DNA of 13,511 bases from a virus (taxonomy: Duplodnaviria > Heunggongvirae > Uroviricota > Caudoviricetes): the IMG/VR virus record IMGVR_UViG_2711768010_000006. One strand, 5' to 3'. Shown one piece after another: positions 1-13,511 of this stretch. A model generated the notes under the pieces. The model was not told the DNA's origin and made no database searches. It was given only the letters and a program-made list of their open reading frames with translations. Each line of letters starts with the position of its first letter. Position 1 is the stretch's first letter. Both the position numbers and the translations under genes were made by a program.

Positions 1-2397
1 CAGAAAGCGGGGATTTCCGTCGGGCAGTATAAAGCCGCCATGCGTATGCTGCCTGCACAGTTCACCGACGTGGCCACGCAGCTTGCAGGGGGGCAGAATC
101 CCTGGCTGATCCTGCTGCAACAGGGTGGTCAGGTTAAGGACTCCTTCGGCGGGATGATCCCCATGTTCAGGGGGCTTGCCGGCGCGATCACCCTGCCGAT
201 GGTGGGGGCCACCTCGCTGGCGGTGGCGACCGGTGCGCTGGCGTATGCCTGGTATCAGGGCAACTCAACCCTGTCCGATTTCAACAAAACGCTGGTCCTT
301 TCCGGCAATCAGGCGGGACTGACGGCAGATCGTATGCTGGTCCTGTCCAGAGCCGGGCAGGCGGCAGGGCTGACGTTTAACCAGACCAGCGAGTCACTCA
401 GCGCACTGGTTAAGGCGGGGGTAAGCGGTGAGGCTCAGATTGCGTCCATCAGCCAGAGTGTGGCGCGTTTCTCCTATGCATCCGGCGTGGAGGTGGACAA
501 GGTCGCTGAAGCCTTCGGGAAGCTGACCACAGACCCGACGTCGGGGCTGACGGCGATGGCACGCCAGTTCCATAACGTGACGGCGGAGCAGATTGCGTAT
601 GTTGCTCAGTTGCAGCGTTCCGGCGATGAAGCCGGGGCATTGCAGGCGGCGAACGAGGCCGCAACGAAAGGGTTTGATGACCAGACCCGCCGCCTGAAAG
701 AGAACATGGGCACGCTGGAGACCTGGGCAGACAGGACAGCGCGGGCATTCAAATCCATGTGGGATGCGGTGCTGGATATTGGTCGTCCTGATACCGCGCA
801 GGAGATGCTGATTAAGGCAGAGGCTGCGTTTAAGAAAGCAGACGACATCTGGAATCTGCGCAAGGATGATTATTTCGTTAACGATGAAGCACGGGCGCGT
901 TACTGGGATGATCGTGAAAAAAAACGCCTGGAGCGGGATGCAGCCCAAAAGAGGGTAGATCAACAGCGTCAACAGGACAAAAATGCGCAGCAGCAGAGCG
1001 ATACCGAAGCGTCACGGCTGAAATATACCGAAGAGGCGCAGAAGGCTTACGAACGGCTGCAGACGCCGCTGGAGAAATATACCGCCCGTCAGGAAGAACT
1101 GAACAAGGCACTGAAAGACGGGAAAATCCTGCAGGCGGATTACAACACGCTGATGGCGGCGGCGAAAAAGGATTATGAAGCGACGCTGAAAAAGCCGAAA
1201 CAGTCCGGCGTGAAGGTGTATGCGGGCGATCGTCAGGAAGACAGTGCTCATGCGGCCCTGCTGACGCTTCAGGCAGAACTCCGGACGCTGGAGAAGCATG
1301 CCGGAGCGAATGAGAAAATCAGCCAGCAGCGCCGGGATTTGTGGAAGGCAGAAAGTCAGTTCGCGGTACTGGAGGAGGCGGCACAACGTCGCCAGCTGTC
1401 CGCACAGGAGAAATCCCTGCTGGCGCATAAAGACGAGACGCTGGAGTACAAACGCCAGCTGGCTGCACTTGGTGACAAGGTTACGTATCAGGAGCACCTG
1501 AATGCGCTGGCGCAGCAGGCGGATAAATTCGCACAGCAGCAACGGGCAAAACGGGCAGCCATTGATGCGAAAAACCGGGGGCTGACTGACCGGCAGGCAG
1601 CGCGGGAAGCCACGGAACAGCGCCTGAAGGAACAGTATGGCGATAATCCTCTGGCGCTGAATAACGTCATGTCAGAGCAGAAAAAGACCTGGGCGGCTGA
1701 AGACCAGCTTCGCGGGAGCTGGATGGCAGGCCTGAAGTCCGGCTGGAGTGAGTGGGAAGAGAGCGCCACGGACAGTATGTCACAGGTTAAAAGTGCAGCC
1801 ACGCAGACCTTTGATGGTATTGCACAGAATATGGCGGCGATGCTGACCGGCAGTGAACAGAACTGGCGCAGCTTCACCCGCTCCGTGCTGTCCATGATGA
1901 CAGAAATTCTGCTTAAGCAGGCAATGGTGGGGATTGTCGGGAGTATCGGCAGCGCCATTGGCGGGGCTGTTGGTGGCGGCGCATCCGCGTCAGGTGGTAC
2001 AGCCATTCAGGCCGCTGCGGTGAAATTCCATTTTGCAACCGGGGGATTTACGGGAACCGGCGGCAAATATGAGCCAGCGGGGATTGTTCACCGTGGTGAA
2101 TTTGTCTTCACGAAGGAGGCAACCAGCCGGATTGGCGTGGGGAATCTCTACCGGCTGATGCGCGGCTATGCGGAAGGTGGTTATGTGGGCGGTGCCGGAA
2201 GTCCGGCGCAGATGCGGCGGGCTGAAGGCATTAATTTTAATCAGAACAATCACGTGGTGATTCAGAACGACGGTACGAATGGTCTGCCAGGTCCACAGAT
2301 GATGAAGGCCGTGTATGACATGGCCCGCAAGGGTGCCCGTGATGAAATTCAGACACAGATGCGTGATGGTGGCCTGTTCTCCGGAGGTGGACGATGA
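1..2397 (+). CDS. H: Tail tape measure protein (lambda gpH-like), 5'-truncated by the window edge
   Basis: The frame is open from base 1 with no stop, so the ATG at 40 is internal and the gene starts upstream of the window. The translation has the coiled, Q/A/K/E-rich middle and Gly-rich C-terminus (GIVGSIGSAIGGAVGGGASASGG) typical of tape measure proteins. Its stop overlaps the M start in an ATGA junction, as in lambda. Confidence 0.9.
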   Translation, partial: QKAGISVGQYKAAMRMLPAQFTDVATQLAGGQNPWLILLQQGGQVKDSFGGMIPMFRGLAGAITLPMVGATSLAVATGALAYAWYQGNSTLSDFNKTLVLSGNQAGLTADRMLVLSRAGQAAGLTFNQTSESLSALVKAGVSGEAQIASISQSVARFSYASGVEVDKVAEAFGKLTTDPTSGLTAMARQFHNVTAEQIAYVAQLQRSGDEAGALQAANEAATKGFDDQTRRLKENMGTLETWADRTARAFKSMWDAVLDIGRPDTAQEMLIKAEAAFKKADDIWNLRKDDYFVNDEARARYWDDREKKRLERDAAQKRVDQQRQQDKNAQQQSDTEASRLKYTEEAQKAYERLQTPLEKYTARQEELNKALKDGKILQADYNTLMAAAKKDYEATLKKPKQSGVKVYAGDRQEDSAHAALLTLQAELRTLEKHAGANEKISQQRRDLWKAESQFAVLEEAAQRRQLSAQEKSLLAHKDETLEYKRQLAALGDKVTYQEHLNALAQQADKFAQQQRAKRAAIDAKNRGLTDRQAAREATEQRLKEQYGDNPLALNNVMSEQKKTWAAEDQLRGSWMAGLKSGWSEWEESATDSMSQVKSAATQTFDGIAQNMAAMLTGSEQNWRSFTRSVLSMMTEILLKQAMVGIVGSIGSAIGGAVGGGASASGGTAIQAAAVKFHFATGGFTGTGGKYEPAGIVHRGEFVFTKEATSRIGVGNLYRLMRGYAEGGYVGGAGSPAQMRRAEGINFNQNNHVVIQNDGTNGLPGPQMMKAVYDMARKGARDEIQTQMRDGGLFSGGGR

Positions 2398-4799: not shown

Positions 4800-7700
4800 A
4801 TGGGTAAAGGCAGCAGTAAGGGGCATACCCCGCGCGAAGCGAAGGACAACCTGAAGTCCACGCAGCTGCTGAGTGTGATCGATGCCATCAGCGAAGGGCC
4901 GGTTGAAGGTCCGGTGGATGGATTAAAAAGCGTGCTGCTGAACAGTACGCCGGTGCTGGACAGTGAGGGGAATACCAACATCTCCGGCGTCACGGTGGTG
5001 TTCCGGGCAGGTGAGCAGGAGCAGTCACCGCCGGAGGGATTTGAATCCTCCGGCTCCGAGACGGTGCTGGGTACGGAAGTGAAATATGACACGCCGATCA
5101 CCCGGACCATCACGTCGGCAAACATTGACCGACTGCGTTTTACCTTCGGTGTACAGGCACTGGTGGAAACCACCTCAAAGGGAGACAGGAATCCGTCTGA
5201 AGTTCGCCTGCTGGTTCAGATACAGCGTAACGGTGGCTGGGTGACGGAAAAAGACATCACCATTAAGGGCAAAACCACCTCGCAGTATCTGGCCTCGGTG
5301 GTGGTGGATAACCTGCCGCCGCGCCCGTTTAATATCCGGATGCGCAGGATGACGCCAGACAGCACCACAGACCAGCTGCAGAACAAAACGCTCTGGTCGT
5401 CATACACCGAAATCATCGATGTGAAACAGTGCTACCCGAACACGGCACTGGTCGGCGTACAGGTGGATTCGGAGCAGTTCGGCAGCCAGCAGGTGAGCCG
5501 TAATTATCATCTTCGCGGGCGCATTCTGCAGGTGCCGTCGAACTATAATCCGCAGACGCGGCAATACAGCGGTATCTGGGACGGAACGTTAAAACCGGCA
5601 TACAGCAACAACATGGCCTGGTGTCTGTGGGATATGCTGACCCATCCGCGCTATGGCATGGGGAAACGTCTTGGTGCGGCAGATGTGGATAAATGGGCGC
5701 TGTATGTCATCGGCCAGTACTGTGACCAGTCGGTGCCGGACGGCTTTGGCAGCACGGAGCCGCGCATCACCTGTAATGCCTGGCTGACCACACAGCGCAA
5801 GGCGTGGGATGTGCTCAGTGATTTCTGCTCGGCGATGCGCTGTATGCCGGTATGGAACGGGCAGACGCTGACGTTCGTGCAGGACCGACAGTCGGATAAG
5901 GTGTGGGCCTATAACCGCAGTAATGTGGTGATGCCGGATGATGGCGCGCCGTTCCGCTACAGTTTCAGCGCCCTGAAAGACCGCCATAATGCCGTTGAGG
6001 TGAACTGGATTGACCCGGATAACGGCTGGGAGACGGCGACAGAGCTTGTGGAGGATACGCAGGCCATTGTCCGTTACGGTCGTAACGTCACGAAGATGGA
6101 TGCCTTTGGCTGTACCAGCCGGGGGCAGGCACACCGCGCCGGGCTGTGGCTGATTAAAACGGAACTGCTGGAGACGCAGACCGTGGATTTCAGCGTGGGT
6201 GCTGAAGGGCTTCGTCATGTACCGGGCGATGTCATTGAAATCTGCGATGATGACTATGCCGGTATCCGCACCGGCGGGCGCGTGCTGGCGGTGAACAGCC
6301 AGACCCGGACGCTGACGCTCGACCGTGAAATCACGCTGCCATCCTCCGGCACCACGCTGATAAGCCTGGTTGACGGGCAGGGGAATCCGGTCAGCGTGGA
6401 GGTCCAGTCCGTCACCGACGGCGTGAAGGTAAAAGTGAGCCGTGTTCCTGACGGTGTTGCTGAATACAGCGTGTGGGGGCTGAAGCTGCCGACGCTGCAC
6501 CAGCGATTGTTCCGCTGCGTGAGTATCCGTGAGAACGACGACGGCACGTATGCCATCACCGCCGTGCAGCATGTGCCGGAAAAAGAAGCCATCGTGGATA
6601 ACGGGGCGCACTTTGACGGCGACCAGAGCGGCACGGTAAATGGTGTCACGCCGCCAGCGGTGCAGCACCTGACCGCAGAAGTCACCGCAGACAGCGGGGA
6701 ATACCAGGTGCTGGCCCGCTGGGACACGCCGAAGGTGGTGAAGGGCGTGAGCTTCCTGCTTCGCCTGACCGTGGCAGCGGATGACGGCCGTGAGCGGCTG
6801 GTCAGCACGGCCCGGACGACGGAAACCACTTACCGCTTCACACAACTGGCGCTGGGGAACTACAGGCTGACAGTCCGGGCAGTAAATGCGTGGGGGCAGC
6901 AGGGCGATCCGGCGTCGGTATCGTTCCGGATTGCCGCACCGGCAGCGCTGTCGCGGATTGAGCTGACGCCGGGCTATTTTCAGATAACCGCCACGCCGCA
7001 TCTTGCGGTTTATGATCCGACGGTACAGTTTGAGTTCTGGTTCTCGGAAAAGCGGATTGCGGATATCAGGCAGGTTGAAACCACAGCACGCTATCTTGGC
7101 ACGGCGCTGTACTGGATAGCCGCCAGTATCAATATCAAACCGGGCCATGATTATTACTTTTATATCCGCAGTGTGAACACCGTTGGCAAATCGGCATTCG
7201 TGGAGGCTGTTGGTCAGCCGAGTGATGATGCATCCGGTTATCTGGATTTTTTCAAAGGCGAGATAGGGAAAACCCATCTGGCTCAGGAGCTGTGGACGCA
7301 GATTGATAACGGTCAGCTTGCGCCTGACCTGGCTGAAATCAGGACGTCCATTACGGATGTCAGCAATGAAATCACGCAGACCGTCAATAAGAAACTGGAA
7401 GACCAGAGTGCGGCAATTCAGCAGATACAGAAGGTTCAGGTTGATACAAATAATAACCTGAACAGCATGTGGGCTGTGAAGCTGCAGCAGATGCAGGACG
7501 GACGCCTTTATATCGCGGGTATTGGTGCCGGTATTGAGAACACCCCTGACGGCATGCAGAGTCAGGTGCTGCTGGCGGCGGACAGGATTGCGATGGTTAA
7601 TCCTGCGAATGGCAACACAAAACCGATGTTTGTTGGTCAGGGCGATCAGATATTCATGAACGACGTGTTCCTGAAACGCCTGACGGCCCCCACCATTACC

Positions 7701-8297
7701 AGCGGTGGAAATCCATCGGCATTTTCCCTGACTCCGGACGGAAAGCTGACCGCTAAAAATGCGGATATCAGTGGCAGTGTGAATGCGAACGCCGGGACGC
7801 TCAACAATGTCACGGTAAATGAAAACTGTACGATTAAGGGCATGCTGGAGGCGACTCAGGTCAGAGGTGACTTCGTTAAAGCTGTATCCAAATCATTTCC
7901 GAAACAGGCTGGTACGTGGGGTAACACGGAAACACCAAACGGGACGGTTACAGTCACCATAAGCGATGATCATAACTTTGACCGCCAGATTATTATTCCG
8001 CCCATTATTTTTAACGGTATAGCGTATGACGATCCGGGGAGCGGAAATAACCCAGGAGGCACGCGATACACGGGTTATGGTTTTGAAGTTCGCAAAAACG
8101 GCGTATTAATCGCATCCAGAGAAACTAAAGGTGCCATTCCCGGTAGTTACAGTGCAGTTATTGATATGCCTAGTGGTGGTGGTAGCGTCACTCTGGAGTT
8201 TAAGATTTTCCAGAAAGGCAATCAGGGGGCAGGCAATATCACCGACTGTACGGTGATTGTGACCAAAAAAGCGGCTTCCGGCATCAGTATTCGTTGA
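4800..8297 (+). CDS. J: Host specificity / central tail fibre protein J (lambda gpJ-like)
   Basis: 1165-aa ORF with a GGAG 8 nt upstream of the ATG. The N-terminal ~800 aa match my recollection of lambda gpJ closely ([34 protein letters not shown]...). A central block and the last ~150 aa look different from lambda, and the protein is 33 aa longer than lambda's 1132. Confidence 0.92.
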
Positions 8298-8367: not shown

Positions 8368-8967
8368 ATGCGTAAAGTTTGTGCAGCCATTTTGTCCGCA
8401 GCCATTTGCCTGGCCGTATCCGGTGCGCCTGCATGGGCGTCTGAACATCAGTCCACGCTGAGCGCGGGGTATCTTCATGCCCGGACCAACGTTCCCGGCA
8501 GTGATGATCTGAACGGGATTAACGTGAAATACCGTTATGAGTTTACGGATACGCTGGGGCTGGTGACGTCATTCAGCTATGCAGGAGACAAGAATCGCCA
8601 GCTGACCCGTTACAGCGATACCCGCTGGCATGAAGATTCCGTTCGTAACCGCTGGTTCAGCGTAATGGCGGGGCCGTCTGTGCGCGTGAATGAATGGTTC
8701 AGCGCGTATGCGATGGCGGGTGTGGCTTACAGCCGTGTGTCGACTTTTTCCGGGGATTATATCCGCGTAACTGACAATAAGGGGAAAACGCACGATGTGC
8801 TGACCGGAAGTGATGACGGTCGCCACAGCAACACGTCTCTGGCGTGGGGAGCTGGCGTGCAGTTTAACCCGACCGAATCCGTGGCCATTGATATTGCTTA
8901 TGAAGGCTCCGGCAGTGGCGACTGGCGCACTGACGGTTTCATCGTGGGTGTCGGTTATAAATTCTGA
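8368..8967 (+). CDS. lom: Lom outer membrane protein (Ail/Lom/PagC/Rck family beta-barrel)
   Basis: 199-aa ORF with a signal peptide (MRKVCAAILSAAICLAVSGAPAWA) and a C-terminal aromatic beta-barrel end (FIVGVGYKF). It matches lambda Lom in position, between J and stf. Confidence 0.9.
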   Translation: MRKVCAAILSAAICLAVSGAPAWASEHQSTLSAGYLHARTNVPGSDDLNGINVKYRYEFTDTLGLVTSFSYAGDKNRQLTRYSDTRWHEDSVRNRWFSVMAGPSVRVNEWFSAYAMAGVAYSRVSTFSGDYIRVTDNKGKTHDVLTGSDDGRHSNTSLAWGAGVQFNPTESVAIDIAYEGSGSGDWRTDGFIVGVGYKF

Positions 8968-9020: not shown

Positions 9021-9031
9021 GTGGGGTGAAT

Positions 9032-12000
9032 ATGGCAGTAAAGATTTCAGGTGTACTGAAAGACGGCACAGGAAAACCGGTACAGAACTGCACAATCCAG
9101 CTGAAAGCAAAACGTAACAGCACCACGGTGGTGGTGAACACGCTGGCCTCAGAAAATCCGGATGAAGCCGGGCGTTACAGCATGGACGTTGAGTACGGNN
9201 NNNNNNNNNNNNNNNNNNNNNNNNNNNNNNNNNNNNNNNNNNNNNNNNNNNNNNNNNNNNNNNNNNNNNNNNNNNNNNNNNNNNNNNNNNNNNNNNNNNN
9301 NNNNNNNNNNNNNNNNNNNNNNNNNNNNNNNNNNNNNNNNNNNNNNNNNNNNNNNNNNNNNNNNNNNNNNNNNNNNNNNNNNNNNNNNNNNNNNNNNNNN
9401 NNNNNNNNNNNNNNNNNNNNNNNNNNNNNNGGATTCCCGCCGTCACATGCCGGGACCATCACCGTGTATGAAGATTCCCGACCCGGTACGCTGAATGATT
9501 TTCTCGGTGCCATGACGGAGGATGATGCCCGTCCGGAGGCTCTGCGCCGTTTTGAGCTGATGGTGGAAGAGGTGGCGCGTAACGCGTCCGCAGTGGCACA
9601 GAACACGGCAGCCGCGAAGAAATCAGCCAGCGATGCCAGCACATCAGCCCGTGAGGCGGCAACCCATGCGACTGATGCTGCAGATTCAGCACGTGCAGCC
9701 AGCACGTCAGCCGGACAGGCCGCTTCGTCGGCTCAGTCAGCGTCTTCCAGCGCAGGAACGGCATCAACAAAGGCCACTGAAGCCTCAAAAAGTGCTGCCG
9801 CTGCAGAGTCCTCAAAAAGCGCGGCGGCTACCAGTGCCGGTGCGGCGAAAACGTTAGAAACGAATGCGGCAGCGTCACAACAATCAGCAGCCACTTCTGC
9901 ATCCACCGCGACCACGAAAGCGTCAGAAGCTGCCACCTCAGCCCGGGATGCGTCGGCTTCAAAAGAGGCGGCAAAATCATCAGAAACGAACGCATCATCA
10001 AGCGCCAGTAGCGCAGCTTCCTCGGCGACGGCGGCTGCAAATTCTGCGAAGGCGGCCAAAACGTCCGAGACGAACGCCAGGTCTTCTGAAACGGCAGCGG
10101 GACAGAGTGCCTCAGCTGCGGCAGGCTCAAAAACAGCGGCTGCGTCGTCTGCCAGCGCCGCGTCAACAAGTGCCGGGCAGGCCTCAGCCAGTGCCACCGC
10201 CGCCGGAAAATCGGCAGAAAGCGCCGCATCATCCGCTTCAACAGCCACAACGAAGGCTGGCGAAGCCACTGAGCAGGCCACGGCAGCAGCGAGGTCAGCT
10301 TCCGCAGCGAAGACATCCGAAACGAACGCGAAAGCGTCGGAAACCCGTGCAGAATCCTCAAAAACGGCTGCCGCATCGTCCGCCAGTTCGGCGGCGTCAT
10401 CGGCATCATCGGCGTCTGCTTCAAAAGATGAGGCGACCAGACAGGCGTCAGCAGCGAAGGGCAGCGCCACGACGGCATCCACGAAGGCGACAGAGGCTGC
10501 TGGTAGTGCGACGGCAGCAGCTCAGAGCAAAAGTACGGCGGAATCTGCAGCAACGCGCGCTGAGACAGCGGCAAAACGGGCAGAGGATATTGCATCCGCC
10601 GTGGCGCTTGAGGATGCGAGCACGACGAAAAAGGGGATAGTACAGCTCAGTAGTGCGACTAACAGCACTTCCGAGTCACTGGCGGCAACACCAAAAGCCG
10701 TTAAGGCCGCGTATGACCTGGCTAACGGGAAATACACCGCACAGGATGCAACGNNNNNNNNNNNNNNNNNNNNNGTGGCTGGATTCTCAGGGAGCATTTA
10801 ACCATCCATACTGGATGTGCAAGGGTTCCTGGTCTTATGGCAATAATAAAATCATTACTGATACTGGCTGCGGTAATATTCATCTCGCCGGAGCTGTCAT
10901 TGAAGTAATGGGGATAAAGTCAGCGATGACGATCCGCATTACCACTCCGACCACATCCAGCGGTGGCGGAACAACCAACGCCCAGTTTACCTATATTAAT
11001 CACGGAACAGATTATTCACCTGGCTGGCGAAGGGACTATAACTCCAGAAATAAGCCAACGGCATCAGAGATCGGGGCGCTACCGTCAGGTGGAACAGCAG
11101 TATCATCAGTTAATCTGGCTTCAAAAGGTCGGGTAGCCGCGCTGACAGACAATACGCAGGGGGCAGCAGGTCTTGAGTTATACGAGGTGTATAACAACGG
11201 ATATCCAACAGCGTATGGAAATATCATTCACCTGAAAGGGATGACAGCCGTTGGCGAAGGTGAGTTACTCATCGGCTGGAGTGGTACAAGCGGTGCTCAT
11301 GCTCCGGCATTTATTCGTTCACGACGGGATACGACCGACGCAAACTGGTCGCCGTGGGCGCAGCTTTACACCTCGGCTCATCCTCCTGCAGAGTTTTATC
11401 CAGTCGGTGCACCAATCCCGTGGCCATCAGATACCGTTCCGTCTGGTTATGCCCTGATGCAGGGGCAGACTTTTGACAAATCTGCTTACCCGAAACTTGC
11501 AGCCGCTTATCCGTCAGGCGTGATCCCTGATATGCGTGGCTGGACGATTAAGGGCAAGCCCGCCAGTGGTCGTGCCGTATTGTCTCAGGAACAGGATGGC
11601 ATTAAATCGCACACCCACAGCGCCAGCGCATCCAGTACGGATTTGGGGACGAAAACCACATCGTCGTTTGATTACGGCACTAAATCCACGAATAACACCG
11701 GGGCGCATACGCACAGTCTGAGCGGCTCTACAAGTTCAGCTGGGGCCCACCAACATAGTCAGACTGGGCCCAGAACGAATAGCGGGAGTCAACCTACTGG
11801 AATGTTTCCGGCAGGGAGTACTCAAGTTAGCGGGACTAATCAGGTTGGTATCAGTGGCTCATTAACCAGTGGCACCTCCCAATGGGTAGGTAAATCATCT
11901 TCAGAAGGAAACCATACACACTCACTGTCCGGCACAGCAGCATCTGCGGGTGCACACGCGCATACTGTCGGTATTGGTGCTCATACGCACTCTGTTGCGA

Positions 12001-12098
12001 TTGGTTCACATGGACACACCATCACCGTTAACGCTGCTGGTAACGCGGAAAACACCGTCAAAAACATCGCATTTAACTATATTGTGAGGCTCGCATAA
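9032..12098 (+). CDS. stf: Side tail fibre protein Stf, interrupted by two runs of N with a frame change across the second
   Basis: The N-terminus from the ATG at 9032 ([33 protein letters not shown]) matches lambda Stf; the GTG at 9026 in the ORF track is a less likely start. The middle is an Ala/Ser/Thr-rich repeat, followed by a tail fibre repeat motif ([41 protein letters not shown]). The C-terminal part (ORF 10653..12098, frame 0) ends with the His-rich segment and ...[22 protein letters not shown], as in lambda Stf. The two ORFs are one gene split by the N runs. Confidence 0.75.
9199..9430. other. Run of 232 N (assembly gap or masked sequence) inside stf
   Basis: Directly visible in the sequence. 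The flanking coding frame is preserved across it. Confidence 0.99.
9598..10620 (+). repeat. Coding tandem repeat region in the stf shaft (Ala/Ser/Thr-rich, recurring K-T/S-S-E-T-N-A units)
   Basis: Motifs such as [28 protein letters not shown] and [37 protein letters not shown] recur at irregular spacing of roughly 30-80 aa. The low-complexity GC-rich DNA also opens spurious ORFs in other frames and on the minus strand (9733..10482, 9828..10595, 9864..10640). Boundaries are approximate. Confidence 0.6.
10754..10774. other. Run of 21 N inside stf, with a reading-frame change across it
   Basis: Directly visible. The upstream stf frame ends at a stop at 10799-10801, while the downstream stf frame is the one opened by ORF 10653..12098. 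Confidence 0.99.
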
Positions 12099-12679
12099 TG
12101 GCATTCAGAATGAGTGAACAAGCACGGACCATAAAAATTTATAACCTGCTGGCCGGAACTAATGAATTTATTGGTGAAGGTGACGCATATATTCCGCCTC
12201 ATACAGGTCTGCCTGCAAACAGTACCGATATTGCACCGCCAGATATTCCGGCTGGTTTCGTGGCTGTTTTCAACAGTGATGAGTCATCGTGGCATCTCGT
12301 TGAAGATCATCGGGGTAAAACGGTTTATGACGTGGCTTCCGGCGACGCGTTATTTATTTCTGAACTCGGCTCATTACCGGAAAATGTCACCTGGTTATCC
12401 CCGGAAGGGGAGTTTCAGAAGTGGAACGGCACAGCCTGGGTGAAGGATACGGAAGCAGAAAAACTGTTCCGGATCCGGGAGGCGGAAGAAACAAAAAACA
12501 GCCTGATGCAGGTAGCCAGTGAGCATATAGCGCCGCTTCAGGATGCTGTGGATCTGGAGATCGCAACGGAGAAAGAAACCTTGTTGCTGGAAGCTTGGAA
12601 AAAGTATCGGGTGTTGCTGAACCGTGTTGATACATCAACTGCACCGGATATTGAATGGCCAGTAGCACCTATAGGGTAA
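12098..12679 (+). CDS. tfa: Tail fibre assembly protein Tfa (chaperone)
   Basis: 193-aa ORF beginning [54 protein letters not shown], matching lambda Tfa. Its start shares 1 bp with the stf stop (TAATG). Confidence 0.9.
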
Positions 12680-13428: not shown

Positions 13429-13511
13429 GGTGATGCTGCCAACTTACTGATTTAGTGTATGATGGTGTTTTTGAGGTGCTCCAGTGGCTTCTGTTTCTAT
13501 CAGCTGTCCCT
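13429..13511 (+). mobile_element. IS1 insertion sequence, left end only (continues beyond the window)
   Basis: The sequence GGTGATGCTGCCAACTTACTGATTTAGTGTATGATGGTGTTTTTGAGGTGCTCCAGTGGCTTCTGTTTCTATCAGCTGTCCCT matches, as far as I can recall it, the IS1 left terminal inverted repeat and the start of insA. Confidence 0.9.
13484..13511 (+). CDS. insA: IS1 InsA, first 9 codons only (GTG start; truncated by the window edge)
   Basis: GTG GCT TCT GTT TCT ATC AGC TGT CCC translates to MASVSISCP, the InsA N-terminus, at the expected distance from the IS1 inverted repeat. Confidence 0.7.

Follow-up and report, generated by a model that had tools for sequence, protein, structure and literature searches.

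A predicted metal-binding needle tip of the T4 gp37 kind, with an exchangeable head cassette, in the side tail fibre of a lambda-type prophage

Does the His-rich C-terminal end of a lambda-type side tail fibre form a metal-bound needle comparable to the tip of T4 gp37, and which part of the fibre carries the differences that would set receptor specificity? We addressed these questions for the stf gene in a 13,511-nucleotide stretch of caudoviricete DNA (IMG/VR record IMGVR_UViG_2711768010_000006), analyzed as a whole and referred to below as the window. Pfam searches on the ORFs upstream of stf showed that the window is a lambda-type tail module with the order H-M-L-K-I-J-lom-stf-tfa (Table 1). 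The gene context was directly observed: stf comes after J and lom and before tfa, which is the position of a lambda-type Stf, and the annotations of Escherichia coli SCU-111, E. coli RM14723, and lambda give the same gene order (gpJ, Ail/Lom, "prophage tail fiber N-terminal domain-containing protein," "tail fiber assembly protein"). The stf product contains the prophage tail fibre N-terminal domain (PF08400, E = 3e-58 in Pfam), and intact orthologues of 983 and 1008 aa are found in E. coli SCU-111 and RM14723. The ATG of tfa and the stop codon of stf overlap by one base. The Tfa sequence has 93% identity with lambda Tfa and 31% with the T4 gp38 chaperone (E = 3e-20); a dedicated chaperone gene of the gp38/Tfa family (PF02413) thus adjoins the fibre gene, as expected for a gp37-type tip. 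An IS1 element at 13430-13511 flanks the prophage.

A first-pass annotation of the window had quoted several His-motif strings from the distal part of stf and had described clustered HxH motifs near the C terminus, at 11600-12030. All of the strings were reproduced by translating 10653-12098 on the + strand, and the cluster consists of seven HxH motifs, every one of them within that interval. In the last 171 residues of Stf, 14/14 His residues sit in HxH motifs. Shuffling these 171 residues yielded at least seven HxH motifs in 2 of 100,000 shuffles, and on this result chance or low complexity was rejected as the origin of the motifs. HxH 1, 5, 6, and 7 form invariant columns in a 24-sequence alignment of homologues, and exactly seven motifs are present in 107 of the 120 best homologues. 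Pfam also placed PF03335, a phage tail fibre repeat of 14 residues, over HxH 2 (residues 306 to 319). Searches for tandem and direct DNA repeats over 11400-12100 revealed no array and no extended direct repeat; the repetition therefore exists only at the protein level and does not derive from recent DNA duplications. A limited literature search found no paper using the term "His box." Tetart et al. reportedly discussed, in 1996, conserved His motifs flanking a duplicated domain of gp37.

Table 1. Features of the window, with positions counted from its first nucleotide and the basis of each assignment or the T4 gp37 residues with which a motif aligns.
Feature	Position	Strand	Basis or T4 counterpart
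Tape measure H	40-2397		Pfam
M, L, K, I	between H and J		Pfam
Tip protein J	4800-8297		Pfam
Lom	8368-8967		Pfam
stf, side tail fibre gene	9032-12098	+	Start ATG giving MAVKISG; translations, PF08400, intact orthologues
Second N-run in stf, 232 N	9199-9430
21-N run, source of the apparent stf frameshift	10754-10774	.	Flank-identical records and frame restoration
Module A, shaft or knob, homologous to phage Mu tail fibre S/S' domain	10776-11081	+	phmmer vs PDB; PHROG
Module B, tail-fibre domain (approximate boundaries)	11090-11396	+	PHROG 3299, 22609, 37852 at residues ~105-205
Collar domain and linker (Pfam Collar core 11406-11549)	11397-11609	+	PF07484
HxH 1 (SHTHS), ascending needle strand	11610-11618	+	Aligns with T4 H883/H885
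HxH 2 (AHTHS), left edge of exchanged cassette	11706-11714	+	Aligns with T4 H915/H917
HxH 3 (AHQHS)	11748-11756	+	Aligns with T4 H929/H931
Head (distal tip) domain, 52 aa, hypervariable cassette, presumed receptor contact	11757-11912	+	Homologue comparison
HxH 4 (NHTHS), descending strand	11913-11921	+	Aligns with T4 H966/H968
HxH 5 (AHAHT), right edge of exchanged cassette	11955-11963	+	Aligns with T4 H980/H982
HxH 6 (AHTHS)	11982-11990	+	Aligns with T4 H989/H991
HxH 7 (SHGHT)	12009-12017	+	Aligns with T4 H998/H1000
Conserved C-terminal end of fibre	12018-12095	+	Nearly identical in T4, lambda, E. coli prophages
tfa, tail fibre assembly chaperone	12098-12679	+	PF02413 Caudo_TAP, E = 4.6e-44

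We looked for the counterpart of this region among known fibre structures. The last 233 residues of Stf (nt 11397-12095) match PDB entry 2XGF, the crystallized receptor-binding tip of T4 gp37, end to end (E = 6.5e-84; query residues 1 to 233 on chain residues 29 to 242). The collar is recognized by PF07484 (E = 2.6e-12; 46.9 bits, cutoff 24) and is 83% identical to that of T4 gp37 and 90% identical to that of lambda Stf. The ascending and descending strands of the needle are 82% and 77% identical to those of T4, respectively, and the head is 9% identical. The motif register was read from a four-way alignment of the window tip, T4, lambda orf-314, and RM14723, in which the seven HxH motifs correspond one to one with the seven of T4, arranged 3 + 4 around the head domain. 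Their spacing equals that of T4, with 32 and 14 residues before the head and 14, 9, and 9 after it, and the distance from HxH 3 to HxH 4 across the head is 55 here versus 37 in T4. In T4, seven iron ions are coordinated along the needle (PMC6957217; PMC11705849, citing Bartual 2010). The irons are held by the paired His residues of the HxH motifs in octahedral coordination, and HxH motifs are reported to be conserved in coliphage lambda (PMC11705849). H929 and H931 of T4 form one iron site and are essential, as are residues of the T4 tip, and those just after H929/H931 bind LPS and OmpC (PMC6957217). The proposal of the first-pass annotation, a metal-binding needle tip like that of T4 gp37, is strongly supported by this homology, through both the 2XGF match and the motif register, and the metal-binding-needle reading of the stf tip is right when judged by homology only. 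We conclude that nt 11397-12095 very probably encode the distal, receptor-binding, metal-bound needle tip of a lambda-type Stf, of the T4 gp37 kind, a reading that no observation speaks against. An AlphaFold2 monomer model of the tip, built on the 24-sequence alignment, was unusable (mean pLDDT of 42.6, pTM of 0.18); low confidence in a monomer is unsurprising, as the fibres of T4 and lambda are trimers of intertwined chains.

From the homology we infer the trimer geometry, the metal binding, the identity of the metal, and the receptor of the stf tip, as follows. Three chains would intertwine, each of them descending the needle through HxH 1 to 3, forming a small head at the far end, and returning up the needle through HxH 4 to 7. 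At seven levels, six His residues (two per motif from each of three chains) would jointly coordinate a single metal ion on the axis of the trimer, presumably iron as in T4, and the row of ions would act as staples along the thin needle. The head domain would contact the cell-surface receptor, which is OmpC and/or LPS for T4 and Ur-lambda. In this fibre the head is an exchangeable cassette with its borders in conserved His-motif codons, and the downstream Tfa would act as the chaperone needed for folding of the trimer.

We evaluated where the fibre varies by comparing the 120 best homologues in blocks of 10 residues. Receptor-specificity differences had been expected between the repeat shaft and the tip, at 10775-11400; this expectation was not borne out, as the region is 89 to 100% conserved among these homologues. 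The region does vary as a shuffled module among distant fibres, yet T4 points to another part of the fibre as the receptor contact. Identity drops, to 0.12 to 0.39, only at nt ~11766-11915. This diverged head cassette is situated between the two His clusters, inside the very interval (11600-12030) that the first-pass annotation had singled out for its His motifs. We observed at least 10 unrelated head cassettes in the same scaffold, with 32 to 57 residues between HxH 3 and HxH 4, and most cassette variants still have seven HxH motifs. At the DNA level, comparison with E. coli RM14723 delimited a diverged block at 11705-11945 with ~100% identity on both sides, and its breakpoints are sharp and fall at the codons of HxH 2 and HxH 5. 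Within a scaffold that is conserved elsewhere, only the head is hypervariable, and its T4 equivalent contacts LPS and OmpC (PMC6957217). On such indirect support the head is presumed to be the receptor-binding, specificity-determining part of the fibre. This particular cassette is rare in E. coli, with 25 occurrences among 5426 complete genomes; a cluster of 743 sequences, headed by an identical protein, carries the label Shigella sonnei in one source. On a wider scale, an HMMER scan of 1.84 billion representatives retrieved 1783 clusters at E ≤ 0.001, of which 264 reach E ≤ 1e-30, and the 3 + 4 arrangement of HxH motifs is the commonest among the best 150 clusters of that scan.

Two other explanations question whether the motifs are in use, or in use as iron sites. 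Read directly from the window, stf falls into two ORFs (9026-10801 and 10653-12098) that overlap and use different frames; together with the flanking IS1, this would fit a dead remnant, frameshifted like the stf of the laboratory strain lambda PaPa, with motifs that are no longer used. We regard this as improbable, since the frame break falls exactly within the 21-N run, where 100%-identical genomes carry 242 nt that restore the frame. Several hundred E. coli genomes are 99 to 100% identical on both flanks of this run, and the flanks together span 572 nt in the 100%-identical records versus 351 nt in the window; with the 242 nt of RM14723 put in place of the 21 N, stf becomes a single continuous ORF. 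Likewise, the 232-N run stands for only ~28 nt in relatives. The lengths of the N-runs are therefore not the true ones, and the apparent frameshift is, as judged from these related sequences, a masking artefact. On this basis a true frameshift as in lambda PaPa was rejected, and all tail genes of the window other than stf are intact; the intactness of stf in this genome rests on its identical relatives. The motifs might also be conserved for a reason other than iron, as Zn or Ni sites, as a metal-free His ladder, or as recombination "boxes." The coincidence of the cassette breakpoints with His-motif codons suits the last of these, and the motifs do serve as homology anchors for exchange. Nonetheless, the needle is 77 to 82% identical to that of T4, whose seven HxH motifs each hold an iron ion in the crystal structure (PMC6957217; PMC11705849), and the HxH spacing is kept residue for residue relative to T4. 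The motifs are, moreover, not DNA repeats of each other, which places the conservation on the protein, and we consider a noniron role highly improbable.

With a needle of the T4 kind as the preferred reading of the tip, specificity could still be set mainly upstream, by 10775-11400 (from the Ala/Ser-rich shaft to the collar), the His-rich tip being only a structural end-piece. This region is modular. Module A matches PDB entry 8JU3, the phage Mu fibre S/S', over residues 229 to 362 (E = 1.8e-51 by phmmer), with the close match confined to the first ~100 residues of the region, i.e., 8JU3 residues 229 to 329, and it also matches the tail fibre families PHROG 6722 and 26292. In other fibres, module B also occurs in combinations that do not depend on module A. 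Among 74 representative proteins, defined as those having the tip plus at least 200 upstream residues, both modules are present in 2 and any part of the region in 14. Mu is a phage with LPS-binding fibres (PMC11915804), and given the S/S'-like match a second, lateral site is possible; the Mu-S'-like module at 10776-11081 may add a second, LPS-directed binding site. We nevertheless find it unlikely that the main determinant lies there. Fibres that are 89 to 100% identical in this region carry at least 10 unrelated head cassettes, which indicates that selection for diversity acts on the head and not on the upstream region, and the contacts that T4 makes with its receptor lie in the head domain (PMC6957217). 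An AlphaFold2 model of 10776-11399 was unusable (mean pLDDT of 30.1), and no binding fold was recognized in it. As far as these sequence comparisons go, 10775-11400 is shuffled between distant fibres and is not the variable part among close relatives.

We compared the predicted needle tip and its head with those of other known fibres. T4 gp37 shares the same collar-needle-head architecture, seven HxH motifs at the same spacing, and an identical C-terminal end, and in both systems the gene after that of the fibre encodes a gp38/Tfa-family chaperone. The differences from T4 are the head, which is unrelated here (9% identity) and 18 residues longer (52 versus 34 aa), the rest of the protein, which is that of a lambda-type Stf and not of a T-even distal half-fibre, and the carrier, which is a temperate siphovirus prophage. 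According to Trojet et al., the C terminus of T4 g37 and g38 derived from a lambda-like phage (PMC3157838).

The fibre of Ur-lambda (Stf, orf-401 plus orf-314, with Tfa) has the same locus order, J-lom-stf-tfa, and the two proteins have in common PF08400 at the N terminus and a shaft rich in Ala and Ser. Identity is 90% in the collar, 75 to 80% in the needle, and 93% for Tfa. Lambda Stf differs in having eight HxH motifs, with an extra 10-aa unit on the way down and an extra 9-aa HxH unit on the way back, in its head, to which the head described here is at best marginally similar, and in the stretch preceding the collar, where a different segment takes the place of the Mu-S'-like module and the second module. 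The distal part of Ur-lambda Stf is described as structurally homologous to gp37 and as binding OmpC, with a receptor-binding domain predicted to fit OmpC (PMC12617516, 2025). The likeness to phage Mu S/S' (8JU3) concerns one internal module only, the product of 10776-11081, and a PDB search returned no 8JU3 match for the tip (nt 11397-12095). The tips of T2/T6/S16-type fibres likewise recognize the receptor at the distal end of a trimeric fibre, but specificity there comes from a separate gp38 adhesin (PMC3157838), whereas here, as in T4, the C terminus of the fibre itself would be the adhesin and the downstream gene encodes a Tfa-family chaperone.

The only phage head clearly homologous to ours is that of Tequatrovirus slur03-type gp37 (slur03/slur14, mar005P1, and relatives), which is also the closest one, with 29/53 identical residues and a score reached by 0 of 2000 shuffles. 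It is carried on the same HxH scaffold, with the difference that eight HxH motifs are present there, in the long tail fibre of a virulent myovirus. The slur03-type heads are only ~55% identical to this head, and the receptor need not match. Similarity to the lambda head is marginal at best, the score being reached by 104 of 2000 shuffles, and a shuffle-scored comparison with the T4 head found no significant similarity. With a head unlike that of T4 and only marginally like that of lambda, the receptor cannot be transferred from either, and we rejected its assignment from T4 or lambda.

The feature as such is already known, having been published for T4 and for lambda Stf. Knowledge of the kinship of lambda Stf/Tfa with T4 gp37/gp38 goes back to the 1980s-90s, and that of the iron-binding HxH needle to the crystal structure of 2010, going by the papers cited in PMC3157838, PMC6957217, PMC11705849, and PMC12617516. 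The practical value of the present analysis is in annotation and engineering, through a domain map of the collar, the seven predicted metal sites, the head cassette, and the chaperone. For annotation, it carries the warning that an apparent frameshift in stf can be, as it is here on the evidence of related genomes, a masking artefact. For engineering, the presumed specificity cassette at 11705-11945, with natural exchange borders in His-motif codons, offers a cut site for retargeting fibres; retargeting of phage-based delivery has been done with lambda Stf chimeras (PMC11338833). As for the biology of these phages, we tentatively suggest, as a possibility that is rather doubtful at this stage, that the 52-residue head cassette specifies a receptor other than the ones that T4 and lambda use and that cassettes are exchanged between temperate and virulent phages via the His-motif codons. 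If this is true, the distribution of this cassette, rare in E. coli yet present in the cluster labeled Shigella sonnei, and with slur03-type T-even heads as its only clear phage kin, would show such exchange in progress.

We found a match to the needle scaffold region of the stf fibre tip in 5186 of the 5426 complete E. coli genomes in the collection, and the window's own head cassette, the variable head domain carried by that scaffold, was present in only 25 of them. An identical protein is also the representative of a 743-sequence cluster, labelled Shigella sonnei by a source. In the representative protein library, a protein of 938 aa (P0121) is identical to the fibre of the window until midway through the head cassette (...GTSQWV), where it passes into a different tail-fibre segment; after this comes another whole collar-needle-head tip, whose head is of a different type. 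P0121 is either a recombinant with its junction within the head or an assembly chimera.

Positions in the window of the features described
Feature	Position (nt)
N-run 1, in stf	9199-9430
N-run 2, in stf	10754-10774
Mu-like module of stf	10776-11081
Head cassette, compared stretch	11715-11945
TAATG at the stf-tfa junction	12096-12100
IS1 left end	13430-13511

We compared the two N-runs within stf with related E. coli sequences, and neither run has its true length. Where the first has 232 N, E. coli SCU-111 has ∼28 nt; in place of the 21 N of the second, identical relatives, E. coli RM14723 among them, carry 242 nt. The second run produces a false frameshift in stf, which resembles the stf defect of the laboratory phage lambda PaPa.

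Downstream, the stop codon of stf (TAA) and the start codon of the chaperone gene tfa (ATG) share one base, which suggests translational coupling of fibre and chaperone. Likewise, the annotated end of orf-314 and start of orf-194 in lambda (NC_001416) have one base in common (21973). The left end of IS1 (GGTGATGCTGCCAACTTACTGATTTAGTG...) starts ∼750 nt 3' of tfa and reaches the window end, which probably falls inside an IS1 copy; an IS1A transposase is annotated at the corresponding place in E. coli relatives.

Finally, the tail fibre S/S' of phage Mu (PDB 8JU3) has in its residues 229 to 329 a close match to an internal module of stf (E = 1.8e-51). This close match identifies the module as a mosaic piece that a lambdoid prophage fibre has in common with a Mu-type myovirus fibre.
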